The translations under genes and the position numbers were made by a program. Source: Botryllus schlosseri (Eukaryota). From it: DNA of 64,000 bases. The notes beneath the pieces were generated by a model. That model ran no database searches and was not told the DNA's origin. It was given only the letters and a program-made list of their open reading frames with translations. This document shows, one piece after another, positions 9,675 to 50,409 of the stretch (positions are counted from its first letter, which is position 1; the number at the start of each line of letters is the position of its first letter). The stretch lies in NCBI GenBank assembly GCA_051294905.1, contig CM119372.1, positions 2,048,001 through 2,112,000 of the forward strand, read 5' to 3'.

Positions 9675-9910
9675 GGATTATCCAACAAATGTTTTCCAAT
9701 GGCAGAATTTATGGCCTTTGTCTGTTCTGCTGAATCAAGCTTCAGGGGATAAATCAAGAAGGGTGAGCCCATAAAGGCTATGACCAAGCGTGATACGCGT
9801 GTTCTGATAAATCTAGGGACATGCTGTTTTGTGCGGTCCTACAAACTTTGGTTCGTTTTTCCCCACGTATCCACAATCACAGGGGCACTTATATTCATAA
9901 ATACATTATT
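9675..9910 (-). pseudogene. Diverged Penelope-like GIY-YIG endonuclease fragment
   Basis: Aligns by eye to 17148-17367; minus strand encodes YEYKCPCDCGYVG and ...AINSAIGKHLLDNP with an intervening frameshift. Confidence 0.8.
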
Positions 9911-10345
9911 TTCTGACCCGATGCATTTACATGTACAGTTTGTACACTGGATAAAAGAACTAGGATAACATAAAAGTAAGGGACAAAATGAATCATGAAT
10001 GCTTCGGTAGGCGCGGTTGATACGTCAGGTCGACGGACTATCGATACCTGTTGATTATTTGTCATGTGATGTCGACGAATTTATAAAAGGAAACTTCTGC
10101 AAGTCGACAACCTATGATGAGTAGTAACAAATAGCCTAACCGACAGCCGGTAGTTCAACCCCGTTGCAATCTGAATTCCATAAATTAATTTGCACCGTAT
10201 ATTCCGTGCTTTCAATGCAGATAGACGATGATTCACGTGATCATCGTTTTACTGCCGATTGCCAAACCGAAGTAATAATAATAACATCACAGTGGCATAG
10301 TAGCAAGTCTCTGATCAATCTGCTTTTGTGTATAGTATCGTTATT

Positions 10346-16100: not shown

Positions 16101-16447
16101 CATCCTATCTATTTGCATTAGAAACTCAAACTCAGTAATTTTCAGGATATTTACAAGTAGTTTTACGTTACAGTATCCCTCATTTCTTTCCATCCATGAG
16201 TGTGCATGCCTCTGATTTATACTGCCAAGACCCAGGTGAGTGTCTGGTTTAAAAGACTACTCCAATTCGTTCAAACCGACACCTTCCTATTTTTTCATTG
16301 AATCGCAATCTCATGGTATTTTGGAATGATAAGGCCCACCACATTCGAAATCCCAGCGTTCTCGTCCCTGCGCCTATTTCGTTGTGCGGAGTCCATAATG
16401 TATCATTACCTACTGTGAATTGAAGTAACTTTCTAAGAGCTTACCAT
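13107..16447 (-). CDS. CYB5R: NADH-cytochrome b5 reductase (CYB5R1/2/3 family); exons 16447-16445, 15976-15816, 15604-15445, 14940-14752, 14432-14322, 14217-14118, 13279-13107; 298 aa
   Basis: Motifs [65 protein letters not shown]; all junctions GT-AG and in frame. The ATG-only first exon is less certain. Confidence 0.95.
13358..14040 (+). mobile_element. GACTC/GAGTC-repeat MITE family (CAGGGTTGTAA ends) with nested MITE 13481-13803
   Basis: Homologous to 37992-38551. Inner element TIR TAGGGTTACCATA...TATGGTAACCCTA flanked by GTTAAAA direct repeats. Confidence 0.75.
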
Positions 16448-16852
16448 CCCAGCTTTCTTCATCGATTTACAATACACAGAACCAGTTCAGCGTGATTAAT
16501 CCGCAGCCGCTGTTGTGACGTTGTGACTACTGTTGCAGAGGTGCAGCCTGAGCAAATTGCCGAGACGAGTTTGCTTGCAAACCAGAGATGAGCGGATTTA
16601 AAATTTCTATGTCCTAATCCAATCCAAATCCTAACCTTCAAATCCTAATCCAAATCCTAATCCATAGCTTTTTCATATTCAAGTCCATGTCCAATCCTAA
16701 TCCGATTCCAACTGGAAATTCAGAAAAAATACTAATTTATGCAATGGGGGGATTCGAAAATTTTCTTTCACAACCAATAATTCACTTTATTCAAGATAAC
16801 TTGGTAACCATAAGTACATAAATAACTAAATAGTATATTCATATTGAAATGA

Positions 16853-16896
16853 ACCCGAATATTTTCGGCTGACACTCGTCAGGGGTAATCGTCAGC
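16853..16896 (-). ncRNA. Minimal type I hammerhead ribozyme (Penelope pseudo-LTR), left arm
   Basis: Reverse complement of 20926-20969. Confidence 0.85.
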
Positions 16897-16987
16897 AACT
16901 AGTAGAGAATTGGAAAGAACATTGTATATCAACAATCGTATCACAAAATATGACGTCACCAGCATGAAATTTCGAATGAGAGAGCGT

Positions 16988-18940
16988 TCAATGTACTATT
17001 TTTAGGTGATACACGAACTCCTTTTGTTGACAGAGTTTTGGTTGGTGTATTTTGATAAAAGTTGATTCCAAGGCACACAAATGGAATTGTGAACGGCCTC
17101 GACCTACGATTCGGAATCGGTCGTCTCGATAATTATTCGCACAAATCGGATTATCCAACAGATGTTTGCCGATGGCAGAATTAATGGCTTTTGATCGATC
17201 AGCATCAATCTTGAGTGGATGAGTTAAGGGTGAGCTTTTCACATCGCGTGACGCACGTGTTCTGATAAATCTGGGGACATGTTGGTTTATGCGGTCCTGC
17301 AGACGTCTTGACGTTCTTCCCACGTAGCCACAATCACAGTGGCACCTATATTCGTACACTACATTACTTTGTTGAAGTGCAGGAAGCACGTCTTTGCGTG
17401 TTGAAGGGAGCAGTTGTGTTGTTGTAAAAATCACATTGGTTTTGACTGTATCGTAACATTTACCGACAGCAGAAATCAATTGTTTTTCAAAGCGGGTGGA
17501 AATGGGGCCAATCCAAGGTAGATGGATATAAACATCTTTTATTGTTCGTGCGGTGGGCTCTGTTCGTTTTTCTGCGTTGAATTGCGTTAATTTCCTCTCC
17601 ATGCCGCGGCTGATGACGTGTTCAGGGTAACCGTTATCAAGTAAGATTTTTCGGATGTAGTCAAGTTCTAAACTCAGTTTGTTACCCGAACATATCATCA
17701 GCGCTCTATGCACGAGTGTGCCTATGAGGTTAATTTTTCTGCGCCGAGGACTAAATGAATTCCAGCGAAGGTATTGGCCTGTGAATGTCGGTTTTCTGAA
17801 AACAGACGTTTCAAATTTGTTGGTATTGCGCTTTTCAACTAATACGTCCAGAAATGATAGTGAGTTATTGCGTTCTTTTTCTATTGTGAATTGCAAGGCC
17901 GGGTGAAGCGAGTTTAAGCGAATGAGAAATTGGTCACACTCCGATTCATTCCTGAAAATAACAAATGTATCATCTACGTATCGGCGGTACAATAGTGGTT
18001 TGGCGGACTCACGCTGGGACAGAAGCTCGCCCTCGTAATACCCTACGAAAATGTTGGCCAAAATAGGTCCCAGGGGACTTCCCATGGCTAAGCCGTCTAT
18101 TTGGCGAAACATGACCTCGTTAAAGCTAAATTCCACCGAGCAGGTTGCCGCTTGTAAAAGTTCCACAAAGACGTTACGCGGGATTGATGGTGGCGGTAAC
18201 TTACCACCGTACAGCGCGTTGGCACAAATATCAATAGTCTCATGCAGCGGAACGTTCGTAAAAAGACTAGAGATATCAAATGAGCTCAGAAACACGTCTG
18301 GATTCGGCAAATCCAGGTTTCGTATTTCACCAGCGAACGTGAACGAATCGCGAACACATTCCGTGCCGTACAATTCCCGAACCGGTTCCAAAATGTCAAT
18401 AAGCCATTTTGCCAGCTGATGGTGAGCAGACCCGATCATGGAAAGTATAGGTCTCACTGGGACATTGTCTTTGTGAGTTTTTGGCAGTCCGTACATGCGT
18501 GGTCTTTGCGATCCCGTCGGTCTGATGGCGCTGTATGTTTCTGCCGTTAGGACACCGTTTTTCTTCAATGTCAGCAAACGGTTGGTCAGTCGTCTTTCAA
18601 TTTTAGGTGTATTATCAAATTCCGAAACCGAACCAAGCGAGATAAATTTGGTTTTGTCATGCAATATTGATTCCATTTTCGAAATGTAGTCAGCTTTGTT
18701 CAGAATGACAACACCGGATCCTTTGTCTGGTTTGGTGATGTGAATTTCAGGGTTGGATCGCAATGCTTTGATGGCTAGGAAACACTCTTTGTTCATCAGG
18801 AAGTCCGCCTTGTCGACCGGGCATCCACAATACGAATGTGCCAAATCTGATAACCGAGCTTTGAGAGCAGGTATACCCTCGTCTGATTTAGGTTCGTGGT
18901 GTTTTAATTGGCCGAGGAGAACTTCAAATTCCGCAAATAC
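16988..18940 (-). CDS. Penelope-like RT + GIY-YIG endonuclease, 5'-truncated, left arm
   Basis: KPDKG, YGLPKTHK, FDISSLFTNVP, GLAMGSPLGP, RYVDD, FLDV; VVY...CHCDC.YVG.T...R..QH...IGKH; no stops. Confidence 0.93.
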   Translation of the reverse strand, partial: VFAEFEVLLGQLKHHEPKSDEGIPALKARLSDLAHSYCGCPVDKADFLMNKECFLAIKALRSNPEIHITKPDKGSGVVILNKADYISKMESILHDKTKFISLGSVSEFDNTPKIERRLTNRLLTLKKNGVLTAETYSAIRPTGSQRPRMYGLPKTHKDNVPVRPILSMIGSAHHQLAKWLIDILEPVRELYGTECVRDSFTFAGEIRNLDLPNPDVFLSSFDISSLFTNVPLHETIDICANALYGGKLPPPSIPRNVFVELLQAATCSVEFSFNEVMFRQIDGLAMGSPLGPILANIFVGYYEGELLSQRESAKPLLYRRYVDDTFVIFRNESECDQFLIRLNSLHPALQFTIEKERNNSLSFLDVLVEKRNTNKFETSVFRKPTFTGQYLRWNSFSPRRRKINLIGTLVHRALMICSGNKLSLELDYIRKILLDNGYPEHVISRGMERKLTQFNAEKRTEPTARTIKDVYIHLPWIGPISTRFEKQLISAVGKCYDTVKTNVIFTTTQLLPSTRKDVLPALQQSNVVYEYRCHCDCGYVGRTSRRLQDRINQHVPRFIRTRASRDVKSSPLTHPLKIDADRSKAINSAIGKHLLDNPICANNYRDDRFRIVGRGRSQFHLCALESTFIKIHQPKLCQQKEFVYHLKIVH

Positions 18941-20834
18941 CGAGGGTATACCTGCTCTCAAAGCTCGGTTATCAGATTTGGCACATTCGTATTGTGGATG
19001 CCCGGTCGACAAGGCGGACTTCCTGATGAACAAAGAGTGTTTCCTAGCCATCAAAGCATTGCGATCCAACCCTGAAATTCACATCACCAAACCAGACAAA
19101 GGATCCGGTGTTGTCATTCTGAACAAAGCTGACTACATTTCGAAAATGGAATCAATATTGCATGACAAAACCAAATTTATCTCGCTTGGTTCGGTTTCGG
19201 AATTTGATAATACACCTAAAATTGAAAGACGACTGACCAACCGTTTGCTGACATTGAAGAAAAACGGTGTCCTAACGGCAGAAACATACAGCGCCATCAG
19301 ACCGACGGGATCGCAAAGACCACGCATGTACGGACTGCCAAAAACTCACAAAGACAATGTCCCAGTGAGACCTATACTTTCCATGATCGGGTCTGCTCAC
19401 CATCAGCTGGCAAAATGGCTTATTGACATTTTGGAACCGGTTCGGGAATTGTACGGCACGGAATGTGTTCGCGATTCGTTCACGTTCGCTGGTGAAATAC
19501 GAAACCTGGATTTGCCGAATCCAGACGTGTTTCTGAGCTCATTTGATATCTCTAGTCTTTTTACGAACGTTCCGCTGCATGAGACTATTGATATTTGTGC
19601 CAACGCGCTGTACGGTGGTAAGTTACCGCCACCATCAATCCCGCGTAACGTCTTTGTGGAACTTTTACAAGCGGCAACCTGCTCGGTGGAATTTAGCTTT
19701 AACGAGGTCATGTTTCGCCAAATAGACGGCTTAGCCATGGGAAGTCCCCTGGGACCTATTTTGGCCAACATTTTCGTAGGGTATTACGAGGGCGAGCTTC
19801 TGTCCCAGCGTGAGTCCGCCAAACCACTATTGTACCGCCGATACGTAGATGATACATTTGTTATTTTCAGGAATGAATCGGAGTGTGACCAATTTCTCAT
19901 TCGCTTAAACTCGCTTCACCCGGCCTTGCAATTCACAATAGAAAAAGAACGCAATAACTCACTATCATTTCTGGACGTATTAGTTGAAAAGCGCAATACC
20001 AACAAATTTGAAACGTCTGTTTTCAGAAAACCGACATTCACAGGCCAATACCTTCGCTGGAATTCATTTAGTCCTCGGCGCAGAAAAATTAACCTCATAG
20101 GCACACTCGTGCATAGAGCGCTGATGATATGTTCGGGTAACAAACTGAGTTTAGAACTTGACTACATCCGAAAAATCTTACTTGATAACGGTTACCCTGA
20201 ACACGTCATCAGCCGCGGCATGGAGAGGAAATTAACGCAATTCAACGCAGAAAAACGAACAGAGCCCACCGCACGAACAATAAAAGATGTTTATATCCAT
20301 CTACCTTGGATTGGCCCCATTTCCACCCGCTTTGAAAAACAATTGATTTCTGCTGTCGGTAAATGTTACGATACAGTCAAAACCAATGTGATTTTTACAA
20401 CAACACAACTGCTCCCTTCAACACGCAAAGACGTGCTTCCTGCACTTCAACAAAGTAATGTAGTGTACGAATATAGGTGCCACTGTGATTGTGGCTACGT
20501 GGGAAGAACGTCAAGACGTCTGCAGGACCGCATAAACCAACATGTCCCCAGATTTATCAGAACACGTGCGTCACGCGATGTGAAAAGCTCACCCTTAACT
20601 CATCCACTCAAGATTGATGCTGATCGATCAAAAGCCATTAATTCTGCCATCGGCAAACATCTGTTGGATAATCCGATTTGTGCGAATAATTATCGAGACG
20701 ACCGATTCCGAATCGTAGGTCGAGGCCGTTCACAATTCCATTTGTGTGCCTTGGAATCAACTTTTATCAAAATACACCAACCAAAACTCTGTCAACAAAA
20801 GGAGTTCGTGTATCACCTAAAAATAGTACATTGA
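18941..20834 (+). CDS. Penelope-like RT + GIY-YIG endonuclease, 5'-truncated, right arm
   Basis: Translation identical to the left arm from EGIPALKARL to the C-terminal HLKIVH*. Confidence 0.93.
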
Positions 20835-20925
20835 ACGCTCTCTCATTCGAAATTTCATGCTGGTGACGTCATATTTTGTGATACGATTGTTGATATACAA
20901 TGTTCTTTCCAATTCTCTACTAGTT

Positions 20926-20969
20926 GCTGACGATTACCCCTGACGAGTGTCAGCCGAAAATATTCGGGT
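20926..20969 (+). ncRNA. Minimal type I hammerhead ribozyme (Penelope pseudo-LTR), right arm
   Basis: Stem I ACCC/GGGU, core CUGACGA (20940-20946), stem II G-C with loop UGUCAGC, GAAA, palindromic AAUAUU stem III, predicted cleavage after C20965; loop II complementary to upstream GCUGAC. Confidence 0.85.
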
Positions 20970-21584
20970 TCATTTCAATATGAATATACTATTTAATTGT
21001 ATATTGAAGTTCTGTACCTCCAAGAAGCTCTTCACATAAATAACTGATCTCACTAAAGTTTGTCGCCATTCGCCACATGAAATTTCAATCTCCCAGAAAA
21101 TCGGTAAATCCAATCCAAATCCGTTCCGAAAAAAATTTCTAATCCAAATCCGACAAAATTTCACAAATCCTGTTTTTTCAAAACCTAATCCTAATCCATG
21201 CTAATCTCTGTTGCAAACACTACACCGCGGACTGAGCAGGACGAACGTTACGGGACAACCGGTCAATATTGTGAATGGATATTATTGAGAATTGTCAATA
21301 CCAAGATTTAATTCTCTCTCTACCAGTCGTTGAAGTCAAACACTAACCTAAGTCCAGCTATATATAGGATTTCTATATATCCCTGCTCATAAAACAATGA
21401 GTTGAGGTATAATAATATCATCTAATGTGACCTCACATTCGACTATTCCAAGTCGTCTAGACTCCTTCCTATCTTTTCATTGTATCGCAATTTTGTGGTG
21501 TATTGAACTGATAAAAATTACCAAGAAACCGAACCGAATAATAATATAATTAGTATATTTCCGATCACTCAAATGTTGCAATAG

Positions 21585-27200: not shown

Positions 27201-30200
27201 TTTTAGCAGTTTCTGGCCGCGTTTTCCGGCACCAGCACCAATAGACGAAATCCCAATAGCGTGGTTACTTTACTATCTTTCGAAATCACAATGAAATGTC
27301 GGTCTCGGCCGTCCGAGTCTCGAGTCACGTGACTTGGTTCGAGTCATGCGCAATGACTTGAGTCCAAAAAATAGTGACTCGAGTCGAGTCGTCACAACCC
27401 CGTGTCTTACTTTGTTGAATTCCGCGGTGACTCGCTGCGTTTCTTGCTCCGCGTGGGCGGCTTTCTTCTTGAGGAGCAGTGCTTCTTCCTCGGCGACCCG
27501 AGCCTTTTCGGACAACAATTCCGCGGTCTCTTCGGAACGATGCTGAAAATTGAATAGTATAATCATATCGAAATAAACCTGAATATTTTCGGCCGACACT
27601 CGTCAGGGGCAATCGTCAGCAACCGGTTTGAAAATTTTGAATTTACCCAAATTTTTCTTTCAACCCCGTGAAATTGTTGCGCCGTCTTCAAAAACGATGC
27701 AAAACAAATTCGACTCAATTCCGACCAGTAGAAGATTTTCATTGATAATTCTGGGATTATCCTCGATCGGTGGATAATTCCGGAATTATCATCGAAAAGC
27801 TCAAATAATTTCGCTTCTACGGGTTGGAATTGAGTCAAATTTGGTGTGAGTCCTTTTTAAGGCAGTACCTAACAATCAAATCAAACAGCCAGCAAGATTC
27901 AGTTGAAAGCCCTAATGCTCACCAAAGCCTCAAACGCAGCTTTGCTCTCTTCCTGAAGTTCTTTCAACCTGGAACGGTAAAAATACGGTTTGCACGCGTC
28001 ATGTAAAAATAGTACATTCAGTCTAAGGCAGGGGTTCTCAAACAGTGCGCTACAGGAGCATGTTCAGGTAGGCCCACGGAGCTATTTGGAAAATTGTAGA
28101 ATTGGTGAAAGTTTATTTGTTATGTTATTCGCTCAAAAATACATCCATGTTGTCGAATTATACGTAGGGTACACAAAGCTTTTCATCTGAATCTGATGAG
28201 ATGTAGTGGCCCATATGAGGTCACAATCGACAAGTCGGAATGGGGCGGCTTTTGTCTCCTGGCTATGACTACCTACGGCTAACAGCAACAAAAATAATTT
28301 CGATTATATAATAACTGGAAGTTCATACTGAAGTTTCCGAGTATTATGGCGGGGTTGTATGTCGCTGAAAAGGGTGTGCATTAAACTCGGGGTGAAGTGC
28401 ATTTGATATAGATTGACGGTACTTCGGCAGGTATTATTGTAGCATAAAAATAACCATAATTGCAATCTATTATTATCAATTATCGACTTCCTGTGGAAAT
28501 ATACGGCACCACCGCAACGCTTCGTAATGGATTGAGGATTCAGCGCAGCACAATAATCTTCGGAGTCCGGCCTTGAAATCGTTGTGCATGATGGTAAAGT
28601 CATTATGAATTGATTGTATCGTTGGATTGATGTCCTGACATCGTGATTTCAGTAGGCACAAGGCATACCGTGTACCACATTGCCAAGCTAGCCTATTTTA
28701 AAAATCTTTCTCCACTTCTTTATAGTATCCCATTCACCAAAGAATTGTTTGAAGCTGGCCCAGAACGGTTACATTATTCCGCACCATAGTGGAACTAAAC
28801 CCCGATCACACAGTGGAACAGCGGACAGCAACAATTTACACAAGAGGGCGCAACTGCAGCACCCTAAACCATTAATTGGGGGGAGCTCGAAGGGGCACAA
28901 AATTACTTCGTTGGCCGTTTATTGGATGGGATTTATTCAAGTTGAAAATTTCCTTAGACTAGACGTCTAGAGTTAAATATGATTAAACCTGGCGAGTGTC
29001 AGCCGAAAACAATCAGGCTTATTTCACCATGACCATACTATTGAAACTCACTTTTGTTCTAGCTCCTCTTTCTCCATCAGAATCCTTTGCCTTTCCTCGT
29101 TCTGCCTTCTACGTTCGACCTGTCAGTTTTTGTCGTAGTGGTCAACTTTGATAATCGACTCAAAGTAACATAACATAATTATATACTCCATTTACGAGTA
29201 GAAGCAGCCATTTCGAAGACGCGTCAAAACCGCGTCAACTGGGAGTAGAAAACGTCGGTATGAAACGTGCTCGAGTGGTTCAAAAAAGTGCAAGAGGAAG
29301 TAAATATTCCAAGTAAAAAGTAGGATTCTAGGCCTAGTTTTGCCTTGGAAATACTGAAAGCTGTAGAAGTAGAGCAGTCTCAAGTAGTCTCAAATCATAA
29401 GCACTTGACTAAGTGGCGAAAGTAGGAAAAACCTACTCAAGTGCTGCAAAGAGAACTTCCTTACTGGCCACCTTTGATCGAGCTATCGCGTTAGTCACAG
29501 ACCAGCGATGTAGCCAAAAGTCGCAAGGTTCCGAGTCACCAGTCACCAGACTTTCACAGTTTTGACTCGAGTCATTTTCAATTTGCAACGGAACCAACTA
29601 CGAGTCAACCTACTTTTTCAACTCTGCTCGAGTGATATAGAATGGCTCGCATTCATAATATAGCAATTTTCCCAAGTATTAACAGTTTCTGCCCTTCTTT
29701 TTCAAGTATCAGGACTGATAGACAAAATACCAATAATGTAACGACTTTACTGTCTTCGAAGTTACAATGAAACCTCTGTCTTGGCCGACCTAGTGTCGAG
29801 TCATATGACTTGGTTCGAGTCATGCACAGTGACTCGAGTACAAGTCGAGTCAATTTACGTAATTGTAAAAAATGACTCGAGTCACCAAAAAATCCAACCC
29901 CGACGCAGGCGTACCTGTTTCCTGGCTCGCTCGTCACGGGCCTGGCTTTTCATCTGCTGAATTTCCATGCTGTCTACTTTGCGTCTTTGCATGAACAAGT
30001 CGTGGTTACCGCGACAGAGATCGAGGATCTGAAAAACGGTCGAGAGTCACCGAACATCGTACGTGGCAGGCTTATACAAACTGCTCGATTTTCAAAATGA
30101 GCGACTATCACAACAATCTAAAACTACTCACTTTCAAAGACTCGCTACTTGAAGTAGACCTGCCATACAATTGAATTGTATATTCATATTGAAATGAACC

Positions 30201-33200
30201 CGAATATGGTCGGCTGACACTTATCAGGGGTCATCGTGTGTCAGTGTCAGTCAGAGTGTCAGCCGAAACTATTCGGGTTCATTTCGATATGAATATACTA
30301 TTCAGTTGTATATTGAAGTTCTGTGCCCCCAAGAAGCTCTTTCGAGCTACCGTACCAAGAAAAACATCTAAAAATAGTACATTGAGCTTGAGCGGTCTCT
30401 TGTGCCATGATTATTCAAAATTTTACTTCATATTTGGTGATACGATTATTGATATACGAAGTTCTTTCCAATTCTCGACTAGCTGCCGCCGATTACCCCT
30501 GACGAGTGTCAGCCGAAAAGATTCGGGTTCATTTCAATATCATTATACTATAGAAATTAAACATGGAACGGCAACGATCGATTTTGCAGCTTCGTTCCGC
30601 TTCGCCGAGGCTGGAGTGGAGAATTGTTTTGCGTAAGCGACTGTAGGATTTCTGGCAATCCAAAAGCTGTCGTCTCGAGCGCAGAAATTACTGAATCTGG
30701 TCTTGATCGAAAGCTACTGTTGCACCAATTCCGAAAATATAAATTAAAATAATGGTCAGGCACTGATCCACCTAGAATCCGTCCTCCAAGTCTGAAATAT
30801 CGGCATTGTTCAGAACAATCGGGTGACCGCAACACAATGGCCATAACAATGACCCGTTTGCAACCCTCCAATTGTTCGAACAATGCCGATATTTCAGACT
30901 TGGAGGACGGATTCTAGGTGGATCAGTGCCTGACCATTATTTTAATTTATATTTTCGGAATTGGTGCAACAGTAGCTTTCGATCAAGACCAAATTCAGTA
31001 ATTTCTGCGCTCGGGACGACAGCTTTTGGATTGCCAGAAATCCTACAGTCGCTTACGCAAAACAATTCTCCACTCCAGCCTCGGCGAAGCGGAACGAAGC
31101 TGCAAAATCGATCGTTGCCGTTCCATGTTTAATTTCTATAATTATACTATACAATTGTGGCTTTTCAAGTCTTGCACCACCCCTCCACGCTATCCCGGAA
31201 ATGCCGAGCGTCAAGCCGGGAAGCCGCCGATACCACTTCCACTGATTTACCAGCCGGGGATTGAACCCACGGCCTACTGAACGAGAATCCGAACGCTCCA
31301 CCATTACGGTGTTTTGTTGGCAATCAGCAGGGCAAGTTTTAGAAACTTTGCAACTTTTTTTACAGCTTCCGGCAGCTTCCTAAATAGTCGGAAGTTATGT
31401 AGAATGCAGTTATGAGCTGTCTGACGGAATCTTATAGTGCAACTTTTTGTAACTTTTGTCCAATTTTTCACTCAACTTTTTGCAACTTTTTCGATTTTTC
31501 ATGGAAGTTTTTTCGATTTTGCATGCAACCAACATTTCACTGGAAATATTTGGCAATTAGATCACTGTTTTTTGAGAATTTTGGTGAAATACACGGCCAA
31601 ATTCGACTGAAATGCCGGAAATCAGGTTGACCTTTTTCTCTTCTTTTTAGTCAACCAATGGAGAATGTGGATGGAAAAGTGTTTAACGGGAGCAGAACTG
31701 GAAAGTCACGCAACCAAAATCTGGTCTTTTGGCGCAACTTTTGAGAAAAATAAACGCAACTTTCCACGGATTTCACTGCAACAAAAACTTGCCCTAGTAA
31801 TGAGTAGTCCTATGGGCATAGCGTATATTTACAAAGGGGTCAAAAACATGCGTTGATCGAAACAACTCAACAAATACGTACCAATTTATTTTCCCCCGGT
31901 TCGTCATTAAAAAATATGAAGTCGTTATTGGTAATATCGATAACTCCGGCCGCCACAGATTCGTCGGTGGCGGAGGGTTGGTTCCGTCGCAGCGTCGCGC
32001 TTCTCGAAGGCGGGTTTTGTTTTATCGTGAACTTGTTGTCCTTGAAAAACATATCGCAAAGTTCGCTCCACTGGAAAGACACAATCGGATGGAGACGGTC
32101 GTCTTTGTGGTACACGGACATCGACACCGCGTTGATGCCCAGCCAGAGGCTCGTGTCGTTACGGTTCTGTAGAGGAAACGAATATTAAAACACTTGATTT
32201 CTTGAGGAATACACAGCTGGATAATATCTTCACCAGGGGTGTTCAAAAATGACTTTTTTTTTCCAATCGTACTGGCTACTCGATAAAATTGTTGGGTTAC
32301 CTAATTTAAGCCTACACACCAAATTTGGTTCAATTCCAGCCAGTGGAAGCGGAGTTATTGCCGTCGAAAAATTTGGATTATGAATAAAACAGTATTTACG
32401 GTGACCAATTCTTTAAATATTTCTTATAGTGGTCCCCAAAGGCCACCGTAAATACTATTTTATTCAAATCCACATTTTTCGACGGCAATAACTCCGCTTC
32501 TACTGGTTGGAATTGAACCAAATTTGGTGTGTAGGCTAAAATTAGGTAACCCAACACTTTCATGGGGTGAAAAGAAGATTTTCAATTTTTTTGTTATTCA
32601 TTTTTATATAATAAATAGAAACTCTCTTCTCCTGTAGCAATGCGGCTATTGGCTGGAATTGAACCGAATTTGCTGTGTAGGCTTAAATTAGGTAACCTAG
32701 CAATATTATCAAGTAGCCAGTGCGATTGGAGAAAAAAAGTCCTTTTTGAACACCCCTAATCTTCACATTGAAATAAACCCGAATATTTTCGGCTGACGCT
32801 CGTCAGGGGTAAAAGTCAGCAATTAGTAGAGATTTCAAAACAAGTTTGTACATCAATGATGATATATGATAACGATATTGCTGATATAGAAAGCCGTTTT
32901 CAATTCTCTGCTAATTGCTGATGAGGCTAGAGTGAGATAGCACTAATCCAATTGTACTCTAATTCGAACTTTAACCTAATAGACGCCATTTAAGGCAGGG
33001 TTGTAATGACTCGAGTCACGACTCAACTCGAGTCACGATTTTTTGCGTAAATTTGTGTCTTGACTCGACTTGTACTTGAGTCATTGTGTTCAAATCGAGT
33101 CGTATGACTCGAGGTCAGGACACTGTGATATTTCGCTCACTTTGATGCTAAAATATTGCACGCCGCACATTTCCAGACTCTGCGCGATTTTCAGATACTC

Positions 33201-43553: not shown

Positions 43554-44808
43554 TTACCTTGGCCAATAGAACTCAGTTTGTTTTCTAAGTCTAAGCGGAT
43601 AACGTCTGCCCGACGTTCGAGCAGGACTAACTACAGGACGTTGTGCCCCATTCCTGACCAATGGTTGCTCAACTTGTGGTTGCCGAGGTTGAACAACTTC
43701 CTGTGTGGCTTTATTATTGCCAGCTGAAATCAAGCGTGGTTGGAGTTGGTTCTTATGCCTTCTCCAATACCCATGATCTGTTTTTACAATGTACACAACA
43801 CGCCCCAGTATTTCCGTCACCACGCCAGCAACCCACTTTGGTCCGCTTCGGTAACTGCGAGCGTAAACCGAGGAACCAATCTCGAAATGAGTGACTGATT
43901 GTCTAGGCGTAACGGGTTTCGATTTATCGAAGGGCGAGCACAAACTTAACAAATTGCGCGGCTGTCGACCATGTAAAATCTCGGCAGGCGTTTTCCAGTC
44001 TATGCCCGGGTGCGGTGCACATCGGTACGTAGCGAGAAGTGTTTGGAGCGCGAAGTTGAGATCTTTTCCCCCGTCGCAATTTTTTATTAATCCAGCTTTT
44101 AAAGTCTGGACGAATCGCTCCGCTTCCCCGTTTGAGGCAGGGTGAAAAGACGGTGATACGATATGGCTGATTGCCAAATTAGAGCAAAACGTATCGAATT
44201 CATTCGATGTGAATTGCGGCCCGCCATCCGTGACAATTGTTACGGGCAAGCCTTCAATAGAGAAGACTTCCCTCAAAGAGTTGACCACACACAAGGTTGT
44301 GGTGGAACCGACATTCATTACTTTAACGAAAGGATATTTCGAATGCGCATCGACGATGACAAGAAACATTTTGTTGTTTATTGGACCTGCGAAATCCAAG
44401 TGAATTCGATCAAAGCTTTCGGAAGTTTTGGGCCATTCGCGATACTGACGATCAGGCGCTTTCATTACCTTACGGCAAGCGTCGCAACTCTTAACGAGAT
44501 TTTCAATGTCGCGATTAATGGAAGGCCATGCAATGTAACGTCGAGCCATCTGCTTCATTTTCGCGATACCCCAGTGTCCTTCGTGCAACAATGATAAGAC
44601 TCGCGAGCGAAGTGACTGCGGAATTACTACGCGCTGAAAACCATCAATATTGAGCATAACTATGTCTTCGTGCAGAGAAAGCGAATGTTTGCGAGTCGAA
44701 AACCAAGAAAAATCATCAATGTGCGTCTTTGGATTCCAATTACCATGAGTGACGATAATTTTACTAGTTTCAAGGTTTTGTCCTTCAGTGTCGTGTCGCG
44801 AATTTCAT
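43554..44808 (-). CDS. Integrase part of the Gypsy polyprotein
   Basis: HEGHWG...CDAC zinc motif, RIHLDFAGP, IVTDGGPQF, HPASNGEAER; frame open back to ~44808. Confidence 0.93.
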
Positions 44809-47754
44809 GCGAGTTAACGGTAAGCCATCGAATGCCATATTAATAGCGTGAACGATCTTCGCGTTTTCACGAATTTCCAGTTCGTCAAACTCAGGGTCTG
44901 GACCCTTTGGTAGGCGAGATAAACCGTCGGCGTTTACGTGCTGATTGGTCGGTTTATAGCGAATATCGTATTGATAAGCCATGAGCGTTAGTGCCCATGG
45001 CTGTAAGCGTTGCGCTGTAATAACGGGAATTTTCTTGTCGGGCGAGAAAATAGCTAAAAGCGGTTTGTGGTCCGTTACGAGCGTAAATTTTCTACCATAC
45101 AAGAATTGACGAAATTTAGTGACTCCGTAAATAATTGACAGAGCTTCCTTCTCGATTTGAGAGTAGGATTTTTGCGAATCTGAAAGCGTTTTCGATGCGT
45201 GCGCGATCGGTCTCTCTTCGCCATTGTGCTCGATTGAGAGGACAGCGCCGATTCCGAATTGAGAAGCATCCGTTGACAAGATGAGCTGCTTGTTTACATC
45301 ATAATGAGCTAACTGCGTAGCGTCGATTACGTCGTTTTTGAGAATGCGAAAAGCTGCGTCACAGTCCGTATTCCAAATGAATTTCGCGTCTTTTTGAAGT
45401 AGACGGTACAAGGCAGCGGCTTTTTTCGTAAAATTAGGAATAAACGCGCGATAATAGTTGACTTTGCCCAGGAATTCCTGTAGCTGGCGAACATCCTGAG
45501 GTTTAGGCAACTGTTTGATTGCTTCAACGGATTTGTTAGACGGGCGTTTGCCATCCTTGTCAATTATATGACCAAGGTACTCGATACTACTTTTGAAAAA
45601 TTCACATTTAGCGAAGTTGACGGTGAAACCGTATTCGGCGAGGCGCTCAAAGAGTAGCGATAAGTTGCGAAAATGATCGCGTTCATCAGTGCCAGTAACG
45701 ATTATGTCATCGATAAAACTAGCAACACCGGGTAAGCCGGCGATCATGGCATCAATACAGCGTTGGAAATTTGCGGGACTAGATGCGACTCCGAAACACA
45801 TGCGTCGATAACGGAATAGACCGAATTGCGTGTTGATGACACACAAATTTTTCGCATCATCATCTAATTCTAGCTGAAAATAAGCATCGGCAAGATCAAT
45901 TTTCGTGAAAATACAACCACCCTGTAACTTGTGAAGGATTTCATCCAAGGAGGGCAGGGGATGTTGATCTATCTGAATCTGTTGATTCAATGCTTTGAAG
46001 TCACCACAAATGCGTACTGATCCATTAGATTTAGTGACGGCAACAATTGGTGCTGCCCAATCACTGTAATTGATTGGTTCGAGTATACCTTGATTGACTA
46101 ATCTATTCAATTCGGTTTGAACAGCGATTTGCCTTGCGAAAGGCAAGGGACGTGGCTTGTTGAATACGGGCTTGGCATTAGGTTTCAAGTGAATTGTCAC
46201 CTTTGTCTTGGTGCATCGTCCTAATACATTAGAGAAAACGGAGGGAAATTCGGACTGAAAAGATACCAATTTGTCGTTCGAATCACGAATGTCAATAGTA
46301 TTACATGATTGCGATTTGACCATCTGCGAGGAAATTGCATCCAAAGCAGACGTTCCCTTAGCGGTCATGGAGAAGGCATCGCTCCAATCGAGACCAAAAA
46401 TGTTTTGCCCACGGTGTTCGTCGACAACCACCAATTTTAAGCCAACTCGAACTTCCGAACCCACCTGCACAGTTACACTGCAAATACCTTTCACTTTCAG
46501 TGGCTTGTCGCCGTACGCTACGAAAGAGCAATGGTATGCTGAGAGTTTCGGAGAGCCCAAAGTTTTGTACCCAGTCAATCCCACCATGGTAGAGGGTGCA
46601 CCAGTGTCCCACTCTGTCGGCAACGGAATGCCGTTGATGCTGGAGTTGATCCAGAGCTGGTTTCCTACGCGTCGATATAGTTGATCGATGTCGAAGAAGA
46701 GGAGCGGCACTGAGCAGAAATTGACGGATGTGACCTGTTGCGTGATACTAGGTTTGGTAGACATGCACACAGGTTTGATATGACCTTTACGACCACATTT
46801 CTGACGTACTGCATGTCGATACTGACAGTCTTTTCTCTGGTGATCGATGAAACAGCGGCTGCAGGATTTCAGTCTTTCCGGGAAGTTGCCTTGGATGGAT
46901 TTGGAAGGTTTTTTCCCCTTCTGATAACTTCCCGTCATCTTGTTGACGAAAGAAGTATCTTTACTGCTACTCTCGCCCTGGATAACCCTATCAGTTTCCA
47001 GCGTTCTCACGTATGTTGCGGCTACTTTGAGAACGTCGTCGAGGGATGGTTTGGTTTGTGTTAGACAATGCCGTCTCACATCCGCGTGCGGCGTTTCTAT
47101 AATGATGAGATCGCGCATTAGCTCATCAACGTAGCTCTGATCACAGCCTTCTCTTGAGCATGTGAAGTTGCAATCCTTGGAGATTCCGCGTAGAGTAGCG
47201 ATCCAATCGGCGTATGATTGTCCCGGCTGCATTTTGCAATTGTAAAATTCGTACCTGGCTGCTTGCACAATATGCACATGAATTGAGTCCTTGAAGTGTG
47301 TGGACAACTTCTCAGTCAACGCGTCGAAGGATTGTGCACTGACATCAGCAGCACCAAACAAATAACGTAGAAGCGAGTAGGTTTCAGGTCCGACCGATGA
47401 GAGTAGACACGCTCTGTTTTTCTCCATGTTGGAAATGCCGTAAATTGCTAGGTGATGGTTGAATCGTTGCAGATATTGGTCCCACTTTTTCTTTGATTTT
47501 ACAAACGAATCAAACTTGGGAGCGGTAGCTTCAGATGTTGACGCACCGGGATTCAACCTCTGCACTAATTGCGATATGGCTTCCTCATGCTGCAGCTTTT
47601 GCTGTGCCATATCTTCTTTGTGCTGTGCGCGTTGTTGGTCCAAATCTTCTCTGTGCCGAGCATTTTGCTGCTCCAGCTCTTCTTTACGCTGTGCGCGTTG
47701 TTCCGCCATCGTTTCCTGCTGCTTCTCTAGAAGCTTCAATATACTTGCTTCCAT
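44785..47754 (-). CDS. Gag-protease-RT-RNase H polyprotein (frameshifted from integrase near 44810)
   Basis: Zn-knuckle region, WDTGA protease, WAAPIV, RICGDF, FGVASSPANFQ, FIDDII, TDAS..GIGAVL, YSQIEKEAL, TDHKPL, NADGLSR. Confidence 0.93.
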   Translation of the reverse strand: MEASILKLLEKQQETMAEQRAQRKEELEQQNARHREDLDQQRAQHKEDMAQQKLQHEEAISQLVQRLNPGASTSEATAPKFDSFVKSKKKWDQYLQRFNHHLAIYGISNMEKNRACLLSSVGPETYSLLRYLFGAADVSAQSFDALTEKLSTHFKDSIHVHIVQAARYEFYNCKMQPGQSYADWIATLRGISKDCNFTCSREGCDQSYVDELMRDLIIIETPHADVRRHCLTQTKPSLDDVLKVAATYVRTLETDRVIQGESSSKDTSFVNKMTGSYQKGKKPSKSIQGNFPERLKSCSRCFIDHQRKDCQYRHAVRQKCGRKGHIKPVCMSTKPSITQQVTSVNFCSVPLLFFDIDQLYRRVGNQLWINSSINGIPLPTEWDTGAPSTMVGLTGYKTLGSPKLSAYHCSFVAYGDKPLKVKGICSVTVQVGSEVRVGLKLVVVDEHRGQNIFGLDWSDAFSMTAKGTSALDAISSQMVKSQSCNTIDIRDSNDKLVSFQSEFPSVFSNVLGRCTKTKVTIHLKPNAKPVFNKPRPLPFARQIAVQTELNRLVNQGILEPINYSDWAAPIVAVTKSNGSVRICGDFKALNQQIQIDQHPLPSLDEILHKLQGGCIFTKIDLADAYFQLELDDDAKNLCVINTQFGLFRYRRMCFGVASSPANFQRCIDAMIAGLPGVASFIDDIIVTGTDERDHFRNLSLLFERLAEYGFTVNFAKCEFFKSSIEYLGHIIDKDGKRPSNKSVEAIKQLPKPQDVRQLQEFLGKVNYYRAFIPNFTKKAAALYRLLQKDAKFIWNTDCDAAFRILKNDVIDATQLAHYDVNKQLILSTDASQFGIGAVLSIEHNGEERPIAHASKTLSDSQKSYSQIEKEALSIIYGVTKFRQFLYGRKFTLVTDHKPLLAIFSPDKKIPVITAQRLQPWALTLMAYQYDIRYKPTNQHVNADGLSRLPKGPDPEFDELEIRENAKIVHAINMAFDGLPLTRMKFATRH

Positions 47755-50409
47755 GATGTATCTCAGTCGCAGAAATAAATATGAATCCGACTTCTGACAC
47801 CAATTGTTATGTTCTTGATCTTGTCCGAACAATAACTCAATACGACGAGGTTGCAATACAGAATCAGTATATTGTACAGCAAAATAACTTTACGGCAGCG
47901 ACACGATCCCGAGTGCAGTTAAATGAAAGACCAGTAGACAACAGAACACTGGGTATAAATACGAAGCACGACACACGAGGAAATAATGATTGGCGGTATT
48001 TACTATCCTAGACAAATAAGAAACAAACGATACCAACGTAAAATGCACGAACATAACAGTATCATGTCCGAATTCGGTAATGGTTGAAATTTGTTCAAGA
48101 GTTCAAAGTTGAAATTTCATGTCCCAGTGTAAATCCAACTTAGAAATACCCGTAAATACATATCCAACCCAATAAATATGGCCAAAATCACCAAATCCAT
48201 ACACACCGCTGGTAGATCTGACCCGTATAATAGCCCTGAGGACGAAAAACTCCAATCTTATCGAGTGACAATTGACAGTGATGATTATGATAACGATGAG
48301 TTGTTATAACATCGTGCGATACAGACATTTCGTGAAAGTCACATTGTGTATTAGTCGGCGGCCTGTCATTCTTATCCGATCACACACACAATGCGCTGTA
48401 ATTAACATATAGGAAGATGCAGAAACGACCGAGTACGGTCTCTTAATCTAGCAACCACCTCCGCCTATATGCACGATGTTATAGTGTTCAATCGTGACCT
48501 ATTCGGCTATCTTTCAAGTTATGCGCTTTTCCTTGCTTTTTTCATTCGATTTTCATTGTATGTCTACTCGTTCGGGCGGTCTTTATCTGGCCTTTTTTTG
48601 TAAATACTCTGTAATAATTACAGTCTAAGCATATATAATCTGATTAAATGCTACTATTTTGGCAATATCATCTGCATACAGGGGCGCTGTCAAAAATGCA
48701 GAAGCGCCTTTCAATGAAACTCCTATCGATCATGGATTTTAATCAATCCAATCCTGAGTTTTTCCATGTCCGGTTCTATCGGGTCTGAACATCTAACACA
48801 GTGGTTCTCAGCATTTTTGTTTTCGCGGACCTCTTTTGGACCGTCACGGTCCCCAGCGAGCCCCCTCAAGTTTTCGTTCAAAATTAGCTCAACTATCGCG
48901 CAGCCGTCAAACTGTCTTGTGCGAATATTATTGTAGGCTAGAGATAAACAGCTGTGTTTTTGTCTTGATAATCCACGTCTTGGATTTGATGTGAATGAGT
49001 GCCGAAAATCCATTTCCACAAAGATACGTGGTGATGAATGTAATAATAATGCGTAATGCTTTCGATGACAGTTTTTAGCGTGAGTTTTCAATGAACTTGT
49101 CCTGTTTTATCCACTAAATAACTTCAAGATGAGATGAACGTGATAAATGAGTTTTGTGGCGAGGTTTAGAGGTTTTGCGGACCCCCAGTTTAGAACCACT
49201 GATCTAAAATCTATTATTTTAAATCTGAATAAACATGTATGTAGCTAAACTAGCTATTGTAAACATTGTAAACTGAACATTATGACGTCATAGGCTCGCG
49301 TTCACGTTCGTCGTTCGCGTATCCACGAGCCAGAGGATTTGAGATATTCGCAGTTCGCACCAGCCTCGGGCTATGGTCACTCCTTGTGCACCTTCTTCAA
49401 TAAAACTATACGTCACAATATCTTTTTTATTCTGGTATATTTACAAATAAGAACCAGCAGTCGGAAAACATCGAAATATGAAAAATACAATATCAGAAAT
49501 TGTTTAGACTCGTTCTCGTTACGAATGATGTAGTAAATATATCTTCCGTAGCAAAAGTCAATTTATTACAGCAAGGCGATATTCGAAAAACCATGATTCA
49601 CGAATTCCTTCGCAACCGTGGAATGCTGTGGAACACACACGGATGTAAATATACGGCAGAATGAGTGTCGATCTAGACTAGAATAATAAGTTGACATGCT
49701 CGCGCAGACGGGCGTCGAAATCCGTATTGCATTGTTATTTTTATAGGGCAAATCTCATCTAGCATATACGCGAAGCCAAATCTCAAAACATTCAGAAATA
49801 TTACGAAGGAAGATATCCCGAGGAGTCTACCGGTATATCGGTATTCGCCAAGCGTTTATTACGGGTATAAATCGACGACAGAGGTTATTGAACATGGTAT
49901 GTGGCCAAATATTTTTGAAGGCAATCAATTCAATTTATTATTTACAATTTAATCATTTCAACACACCACAAGACTGCGATACAATGAAAAGATAGGAAGG
50001 TGTCGAAATGACTTGGAGTATAGTCTTCGAAATCAGACACTTAACTGACATAAGCGATGTAAAAAGGAGGCATGCACGCTGAATGAAAAGGAAAAGAAGA
50101 TAGAAGGGCAGGCGACAAAAGAAGGTGGCATGTGTATGTGTTTATTGTCACTTTTCAATAGACTTCAATTTCTGCTGAATTATTTCGCGCATTCATTTCT
50201 TAGTGAACCTTATTGCGCGCTTCTTTTCTCTCTTGGGTGAGCGAGTGTTGTAGCGTACAAACGTATAGTGAGCTAGTGACAATAACGGTAATGATTCCTT
50301 TCTTCAATTCATGGAGTGGATCTCAATTTTTTGCCAACTTTGAGCGAATTGTTTTAGCGTACTGGAGGCAATCCTATAGTGGAAAGGGTATAATGAAGGT
50401 TACGATTAG

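Follow-up and report, generated by a model that had tools for sequence, protein, structure and literature searches.

Canonical endonuclease-bearing Penelope-like elements (PLEs), such as Pen2a_Av of Adineta vaga (PMC3846280; scheme in the legend of Fig. 2 of PMC8557442), are described as having a single ORF, in which a reverse transcriptase (RT) precedes a C-terminal endonuclease-like region, an ORF start in the terminal repeat, heavy 5' truncation and a head-to-head inverted copy. An adjoining inverted 5'-truncated copy, a target-site duplication (TSD) around the whole unit and a tail of 30-40 bp at one end are published hallmarks of PLE insertions (PMC8557442, PMC3846280). The protein of PAc, a Poseidon element of Anolis carolinensis with AT-rich targets, cleaves and extends both target strands in vitro; reverse transcription starts at two adjacent internal sites whose interval is the genomic tail, and in the experiments reported the start site was no different between the two strands (PMC11167929). 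Complex tandem and inverted insertions with tails are also known from Naiad and Chlamys, whose endonuclease is N-terminal (PMC8557442). These three papers describe the coupling of start sites, target strands and the central joint as still open.

The window analysed here, 64,000 nucleotides of Botryllus schlosseri DNA, contains a unit that follows this already described insertion plan and is no new kind of structure. It resembles canonical PLEs in ORF organisation, 5' truncation and the head-to-head copy, with a TSD of 12 bp (9-10 bp in canonical PLEs) and a one-end tail of 38 nt (31-40 bp) (PMC3846280, PMC8557442). Unlike the short pseudo-LTR of canonical PLEs, the inverted copy is nearly as long as its partner (ca. 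2.1 kb each). As in PAc, two start sites are spaced by the tail and the target is AT-rich; unlike PAc in vitro, where the strands did not differ, each scorable head-to-head unit of this family uses the two sites once each (21/21) (PMC11167929).

Anatomy of the palindromic unit and its target site

A repeat search of the window found inverted arms at 16818-18881 and 18941-21004 with 59 nt between them. Base-by-base comparison of 16827-18881 with 18941-20995 gave zero mismatches, the nearest one beyond the left arm being at 16826, and thus delimited perfect arms of 2055 nt. The right arm alone ends in a tail, the 38 nt at 20996-21033, which the left side lacks. The parts of the unit are as follows.

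16827..18881, minus strand: left arm, an element copy from unit position 2649 down to 595, with the tail-less end; perfect complement of 18941-20995
18882..18940, minus strand: spacer of 59 nt, unit positions 594-536, encoding aa 199-217 of the element protein
18941..20995, plus strand: right arm, an element copy, unit positions 595-2649
20996..21033, plus strand: 38-nt tail, unit positions 2650-2687

The left arm was 99.2% identical to the reference unit U (L006:907-3598) in BLAST, which gave unit positions 535 and 595 as the two sides of the window junction; the central overlap between the two copies is 1 nt. Other copies have the spacer stretch immediately upstream of the arm and in the orientation opposite to the plus-strand query. 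Its minus-strand peptide, VFAEFEVLLGQLKHHEP, recurs without a letter changed in the intact 848-aa ORF of other genomic copies (aa 199-215), where KSDEGIPALK follows directly. These matches identify the spacer as the sequence that naturally continues the left, tail-less copy on its 5' side. The tail runs directly into the next unit in tandem copies, where it encodes aa 6-18 of the ORF, and 21033/21034 is the point at which reads of other copies, RNA and DNA alike, part from the window sequence.

The unit lies within a host repeat, with the following features around it.

16583..16815: left part of the host repeat (ca. 410 bp, high copy), with matches elsewhere in the genome
16816..16827: left TSD copy, 12 bp, ACATAAATAACT, single in uninterrupted paralogs
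21034..21045: right TSD copy, 12 bp, ACATAAATAACT, single in uninterrupted paralogs
21046..21210: right part of the host repeat, with matches elsewhere in the genome

The left-flank query matched 40 other places from query position ca. 56-64 on (40 scored of 1852 candidates), and the right-flank query matched 41 other places over query positions ca. 1-177/186. No uninterrupted copy of the host repeat was present within the window or in the comparison loci of the element. The 12-mer, which is AT-rich, is a true TSD, because the left-flank match and the right-flank match have exactly 12 nt in common at the uninterrupted host-repeat copies C4:1137471-1137886 and C6:29776509-29776926. The C4 copy (L051), read directly, contains the 12-mer once, as ACATTAATACCT, followed by the right flank of the window. 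Since the final T of the left TSD copy is also complementary to 20995, the duplication is readable as 11 or 12 bp. ACATA at 21034-21038 was considered as element sequence, tandem copies continuing with AAATA after the tail, and was rejected since the empty paralog shows target DNA. The initial annotation had claimed exact arms, to be checked by self-alignment, a one-sided tail, a spacer belonging to the tail-less arm and a TSD; the comparisons above bear out all four, and a 12-mer occurring twice in the uninterrupted host repeat was looked for and found once.

Coding content and identity of the element

Intact tandem copies elsewhere have an 848-aa ORF in a 2692-nt unit, to which the following features of the window refer.

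16988..18940, minus strand: 5'-truncated coding region of the left copy, aa 199-848, with RT and C-terminal endonuclease-like region, including the stop codon
18941..20834, plus strand: 5'-truncated coding region of the right copy, ca. aa 218-848, including the stop codon
20936..20969, plus strand: most conserved block of the 3' UTR, by conservation among diverged fragments; mirror copy at 16853-16886, minus strand
20980..20982, plus strand: mapped position of the ATG at which tandem copies begin the 848-aa ORF; here only the tail and then host DNA lie downstream

The left copy starts at ca. aa 199 and the right copy at ca. aa 218 of 848, and both are without an ATG and ca. 200 N-terminal residues; the description of the insertion as containing the whole ORF therefore had to be abandoned. 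The 693-aa ORFs of the window are open only because their frames run on over the centre into the antisense of the opposite arm and, as partly antisense read-through, they are unfit for annotation as intact genes. In L033, the start codon of the 848-aa ORF lies in the preceding repeat unit, 59 nt ahead of the unit boundary, and the frame passes through the tail. With the ORF start placed inside the terminal repeat, an element is complete only in tandem. L033, L034 and L049 are tandem arrays of 2692-nt period, and a partial-tandem pseudo-LTR with the ORF start inside the repeat is thus present.

The element protein matched Pfam RVT_1 (E 6.9e-09 / 7.8e-09) and had 842 relatives at E<=1e-10, mostly single-ORF proteins of 0.8-0.9 kaa on contigs of ca. 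2.7-3 kb. These matches, together with the single 848-aa ORF and the pseudo-LTR tandems, agree with the Penelope-like identity proposed at the outset, and the element is, by this sequence evidence, probably an endonuclease-bearing PLE. Elements of that group have a C-terminal GIY-YIG endonuclease with a CCHH motif. The Pfam GIY-YIG model did not match the element protein even at E<=5; inspection by eye found a VVY...C.C.C.YVG...R...H stretch from aa 725, and PF01541 stands in the precomputed annotation of 2 of the 120 listed relatives (P0013, P0088). This GIY-YIG-like stretch is C-terminal, unlike the N-terminal endonuclease of Naiad and Chlamys (PMC8557442).

In the conserved 3'-UTR block, hammerhead-like core words (CTGACGA ... 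CGAAA), palindromic AATATT and ACCC/GGGT were seen by eye, with a non-canonical helix II. Rfam searches for a hammerhead ribozyme gave no match, whether in the window (gathering score), in 20700-21100 (E<=1) or across a tandem junction (E<=5), and folds computed for the RNA of the tail and 3' UTR did not surpass those of shuffled sequences (z -0.6 to -0.9). With no Rfam match, the element differs from canonical PLEs, which have a hammerhead ribozyme motif in the pseudo-LTR; minimal hammerheads of PLEs can escape standard descriptors (PMC4209133).

Head-to-head units across the family

The copies examined were the best-scoring 40 of 3516 candidates, a set biased towards long arms, and yielded 21 scorable head-to-head units, 13 of which (including that of the window) were read in sequence and 8 scored from match coordinates only. 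Exactly one end was tailed in 21/21 units, one end lying at ca. unit 2647-2665 and the other at ca. 2680-2692, and TSDs of 8-12 bp surrounded the whole unit in 12/12 units read in sequence outside the window. Head-to-head units with a single tail are the rule in this family. Of the insertions that lack an inverted partner, 5/6 were tailed. The same plan was found at at least 20 other loci of the genome, on many contigs and with different junction points and TSDs, and the hallmarks are published (PMC8557442, PMC3846280), so that the structure of the window cannot be called unusual, as it had been. Three other near-symmetric palindromes of ca. 2.1-2.3 kb were found (L038, L040 and L041). A locus on contig 8 was considered as sharing the window junction; its BLAST alignment with the reference unit gave 597, an 8-nt filler and 502 instead of 535 and 595, and since the junctions differ the locus is an independent event.

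The centre of the 11 simple pairs including the window consisted of an overlap of 0-6 nt or a filler of 1-24 nt. The tail was on the longer arm in 8/21 units and on the shorter arm in 13/21, and therefore neither arm can be a copy of the other; among the 19 simple pairs, it was on the longer arm in 8 (binomial p=0.65).

Arms within a pair differed by 0-17 substitutions and from the reference copy by 2-45, and private variants were mostly common to both arms of a pair; mean divergence between loci was 1.3%. The window arms, with 0 differences within 2055 nt, have 16-17 differences from the reference copy in common, the L050 arms are 0 apart and 21-22 from the reference, and the L030 arms 3 apart and 30-45 from it, the exception being the L037 pair (15 apart, 11-15 from the reference). 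Because differences within pairs are smaller than those from the reference copy, the comparison points to one source for both arms. The window holds a very young, canonical Penelope-like insertion.

Origin of the head-to-head structure

We consider it highly likely that the unit arose as a canonical PLE insertion in a single event. The fuller account, a single recent PLE insertion into a high-copy host repeat with reverse transcription primed at both break ends, is in our view very probable, while priming from two strands in particular is favoured with only fair confidence. In this account, the element endonuclease would make a double-strand break with a 12-bp stagger, and both 3'-OH ends would prime reverse transcription on element RNA. 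The top-strand end would start at the upstream site (unit ca. 2650) and give the left, tail-less copy, and the bottom-strand end would start ca. 38 nt further downstream (ca. 2687) and give the right, tailed copy. Both cDNAs would stop early, at unit 535/536 and 595, be joined at their 3' ends with a 1-nt overlap and each be completed on the other, the 59-nt spacer being the difference between the two stopping points. We infer the event order, an RNA (not DNA) template for both arms and the joining at the centre. A break with 12-bp 5' overhangs would put each 3'-OH against the 3' end of one arm, as seen.

Twin priming of human L1 likewise uses the second target strand as a primer on element RNA and leaves an inverted segment within one TSD-flanked insertion; there, the second primer anneals internally, so that the segments come from different regions of the element. 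Here, unlike in L1 twin priming, both segments start at the 3' end and are duplicates. The initial annotation had offered two-strand priming, which is the best model and which the purified Anolis enzyme performs likewise in vitro (PMC11167929), and, as an alternative, a switch onto a pre-made second strand, which is disfavoured because either arm can be longer and the 3' ends of the arms differ.

A single cDNA whose 3' end snaps back and copies itself would also give a palindrome, a reading that the 100% identity of the arms over 2055 nt favours. Within the right arm, 5 nt from its inner end, is a natural palindrome of 8 nt, GGTATACC; three arm ends cluster at it (unit 595-597), near-symmetric pairs are over-represented (5/19 vs 2.0 expected, P=0.036), and self-priming from palindromes at inverted junctions has been argued for rotifer Penelope elements (PMC3846280). 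We nevertheless hold fold-back to be improbable. The copied arm should end at the start of the first and enter the same flank, whereas the ends are offset by 38 nt and each is flanked by different host DNA, with a direct 12-bp TSD, and on these grounds the earlier rejection of simple fold-back was sound. The longer arm is tailed in 8 units and tail-less in 13, leaving no fixed relation of template and copy, and the central overlap of the window is only 1 nt.

Assemblies are known to go wrong at long perfect palindromes. The perfect arm identity could accordingly come from a fold-back chimeric long read or an assembler error, such structures cause assembly problems (PMC8557442), and the short contig pieces listed include no spanning molecule. 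An artefact is very unlikely all the same, given distinct non-palindromic flanks, an exact 12-bp TSD confirmed on empty paralogs, arms that differ by a biologically specific 38-nt tail and the same plan at 20 other places on many contigs with other junctions and TSDs. Palindrome arms can be homogenised by gene conversion. That such conversion between older arms, or a later inverted duplication, produced the arm identity is scarcely credible, since the graded divergence of 0-17 substitutions in other pairs is as expected from ageing without homogenisation, and conversion leaves the origin of the structure unexplained. Two separate insertions, with a second copy entering or adjoining the first in opposite orientation, might follow from homing of the endonuclease to element sequence, and the enzyme has been proposed to nick its own terminal repeat and other AT-rich DNA (PMC11167929). 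This, too, is highly improbable: a single TSD surrounds the whole unit with no second duplication at the centre, the arms are identical to each other and share their 16-17 differences from the reference, and a strict one-tail rule (21/21) is not expected of independent events.

Returning to two-strand priming, its simple form gives no explanation of why the start sites are used strictly one each. A doubtful possibility is that their use is non-random, a reading that draws on the use of each site once in 21/21 units, the tails of 5/6 insertions lacking an inverted partner and the private variants common to both arms. The primary round of target-primed reverse transcription would then be marked by the tailed end, and the partner subunit of a dimeric enzyme, working on that RNA or on a sister molecule, would add the tail-less end in a coupled second step. 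If true, the family would supply genetic evidence from events in vivo that labour is divided in a fixed way during two-strand target-primed reverse transcription, something not seen in the in vitro work. The family is useful material in this respect: it is young, with long arms and undecayed junctions, and a full census could therefore test the coupling of start sites, target strands and central joint.

Assemblies and read mappers fail at perfect palindromes of 2 kb such as this one. The region 16400-21400 was inspected in contigs from three runs of DNA or unknown type and in the raw reads of one RNA run; only short contig pieces were among those listed, none of which bridged 18941 or a TSD junction of the window locus. 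Joints skipping 4226 were considered as an empty allele; they contain filler letters and represent other host-repeat copies. In a ca. 6% sample of one RNA run, depth at the centre was ca. 0, which is too thin for any inference on the dsRNA that the initial annotation expected from a read-through transcript. Contigs drop rare variants, so shares of sampled words are not diagnostic; run X1 held 0.81 of them, compared with 0.59-0.64 in the 18 other rows holding half or more (eight other studies of the same organism), and these shares could hint that the window copy is private to one sample.

Anatomy of the inverted unit

The repeat finder placed two inverted arms of the Penelope-like element (PLE) at window positions 16818-18881 and 18941-21004, 59 nt apart. 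A base-by-base comparison of 16827-18881 with 18941-20995 showed zero mismatches, the nearest one outside lying at 16826; the arms thus match without a flaw along 2055 nt. All coordinates of the initial annotation were borne out. The parts surrounding the arms are as follows.

16583-16815 and 21046-21210: host repeat of ~410 bp, delimited by flank searches
16816-16827 and 21034-21045: 12-mer ACATAAATAACT, the target-site duplication (TSD)
18882-18940: spacer
20996-21033: 38-nt tail, on the right side only

Searches with the two flanks returned 1852 and 1602 candidates, and candidates for the host repeat numbered >1600 with 86-96% identity. In two uninterrupted copies (C4:1137471-1137886 and C6:29776509-29776926), the matches to the left and right flanks overlapped by exactly 12 nt. 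It had been considered that the host repeat might already carry the 12-mer twice; inspection of the C4 sequence revealed a single 12-mer followed by the right flank of the window. The 12-bp TSD is real. Related pieces of the host repeat were also seen to the left and right of the insertion.

Both arms contain an open frame of 693 aa that matches Pfam RVT_1. These frames stay open only because each continues into the antisense of the opposite arm.

Identity of the element and truncation of the window copies

The 495-Mb, 219-contig assembly was searched with the spacer, right arm, tail and TSD as a query, yielding 88 matches of 80-100% identity, with long copies at 97-100% (best 40 of 3516 candidates scored). 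The set of copies examined consists of the top scorers and favours long arms. Tandem arrays with a period of 2692 nt were present on contig 16, and one real unit of such an array (L006:907-3598) served as the ruler, U. In the tandem copies, the ORF encodes 848 aa, with its ATG placed 59 nt ahead of the unit boundary and its frame crossing the tail into the next unit. This layout agrees with that described for rotifer Penelope elements in PMC3846280.

The protein had 842 relatives at E<=1e-10. The Pfam GIY-YIG model gave no match to it; a GIY-YIG-like stretch containing a Cys cluster was seen by inspection from aa 725, and PF01541 was present in two of the relatives listed. Rfam found no hammerhead ribozyme. 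Among diverged 3'-end fragments, the most conserved 3' UTR block corresponds to window 20936-20969 (mirror 16853-16886) and holds CTGACGA, CGAAA, a palindromic AATATT and an ACCC/GGGT pairing. By these core words the block looks hammerhead-like, with a helix II that is not canonical and Rfam silent; a canonical hammerhead fold of the block was not obtained.

When mapped to U, the left (minus-strand) copy spanned U535/536-2649 and the right copy U595-2687. The initial annotation described a whole-ORF element, which is wrong because both copies are without the ATG and ~200 residues. Its assignment of the spacer to the tail-less arm held: within the left copy the spacer corresponds to U536-594, ordinary copies found in the genome search have this stretch directly upstream of the arm, and the intact protein has the spacer peptide VFAEFEVLLGQLKHHEP at aa 199-215.

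Head-to-head units across the family and the origin of the two arms

A total of 21 head-to-head units were scored, comprising the window unit, 12 others read as sequence and 8 by coordinates only; L042 and L048, which run off their loci, were excluded from the count. In all 21, one outer end lay at ~U2647-2665 (tail-less) and the other at ~U2680-2692 (tailed). Tail-less ends had none of the tail or at most 11-15 nt, as in L031. A TSD of 8-12 bp surrounded the whole unit in the 12 units read as sequence outside the window. At the centre of 11 simple pairs, window included, there was an overlap of 0-6 nt or a filler of 1-24 nt. Other near-symmetric long palindromes were L040 (U417/433), L038 (377/474) and L041 (597/502). 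Six insertions lacked an inverted partner within 300 nt; five of them were tailed, three of these with a clear TSD. Judged by sequence, the window unit is a real, very recent and canonical Penelope-like insertion, and the head-to-head plan is the norm among the copies compared.

This plan matches published descriptions. PLE insertions are described as highly 5'-truncated and as partial tandems, often with an inverted 5'-truncated copy immediately adjacent and with a tail of 30-40 bp that is often at one end only (PMC8557442). Head-to-head is given as the commonest arrangement, with the whole insert enclosed by a TSD and one of the inverted repeats bearing a 31-bp tail (PMC3846280).

The simplest reading of the window unit is priming from both ends of the target. 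A break with a 12-bp 5' overhang would leave two 3'-OH ends, each exactly abutting the 3' end of one arm, and both could prime reverse transcription. The two cDNAs would begin at start sites 38 nt apart, one at the upstream and one at the downstream site; both would halt early, and their ends would be joined through a 1-nt overlap. The initial annotation had doubted a simple fold-back of one cDNA and had offered instead priming from both target strands on two templates, or a switch onto a pre-made second strand. Our observations oppose both fold-back and copying of one arm from the second strand of the other: the arms are unlike at their 3' ends; the longer arm may be either one (tailed in 8 units, the shorter arm being tailed in 13; the split in simple pairs was 8/19, p=0.65); and the flanks are different host DNA with a direct duplication. 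Two separate insertions are opposed by private variants, that is, differences from U, that are common to both arms, and this sharing argues for one source of both. Arms within a pair differed by 0-17 substitutions vs 2-45 between an arm and U, the mean divergence between loci being 1.3%; the exception was L037, with 15 between arms vs 11-15 to U.

Priming from both ends also fits published biochemistry. In the portion of PMC11167929 consulted, the protein of an Anolis element cleaves and extends both strands and has two adjacent internal start sites, the interval between them being equal in length to the genomic tail; no discussion of inverted copies was found in that portion. In vitro the two strands behave alike for the Anolis element, whereas each B. 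schlosseri unit uses each site exactly once, which two-end priming leaves unexplained. The present PLE family would be good material for a census of coupling between the two start sites. A limited literature search on this link returned PMC11167929 alone, and an explicit tie of two-strand priming to the head-to-head plan may be unstated in print.

Where the arms stop was also recorded. In 5/19 pairs the inner ends lay <100 nt apart, where random re-pairing would give 2.0 pairs (P=0.036). Long arms are over-represented in this sample, and a tendency of the two cDNAs to halt together is therefore no more than hinted at. Of 38 inner arm ends, three fell at unit positions 595-597 (window 18941-18953; L031 ~3111; L041 ~3672), all on the tailed arm and at a distance of 5 nt from a natural palindrome of 8 nt, GGTATACC; U595-597 is a possible hot spot for pausing or joining. 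In the probable source run, the 3' ends had a word depth of ~4-5x10^5 and the centre only ~3x10^3, consistent with heavy 5' truncation or with short derivatives that have a common 3' end.

Other features in the window

Fragments at 27548-27623, 28988-29042, 30165-30551 and 32759-32856 matched the terminal ~170 nt of the element, a 3' block made up of the 3' UTR, ATG and tail, at 82-92% identity. Each is either a solo end or a short non-autonomous relative. RNA reads link the 3' block to unrelated sequence just past the stop codon. A piece at 9675-9912, 76% identical to the RT region of the element, is from an older or related family. A further feature lies on the minus strand.

43554-47889: two long open reading frames, in which RVT_1, RNase H and integrase domains were detected

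These domains indicate an LTR retrotransposon of the Ty3/gypsy type. Finally, a break at 16445 was seen in 29 RNA reads and in one contig of 1.3 kb, with upstream sequence in common; this position, ~370 bp to the left of the insertion, probably marks the edge of an exon in a host transcript.
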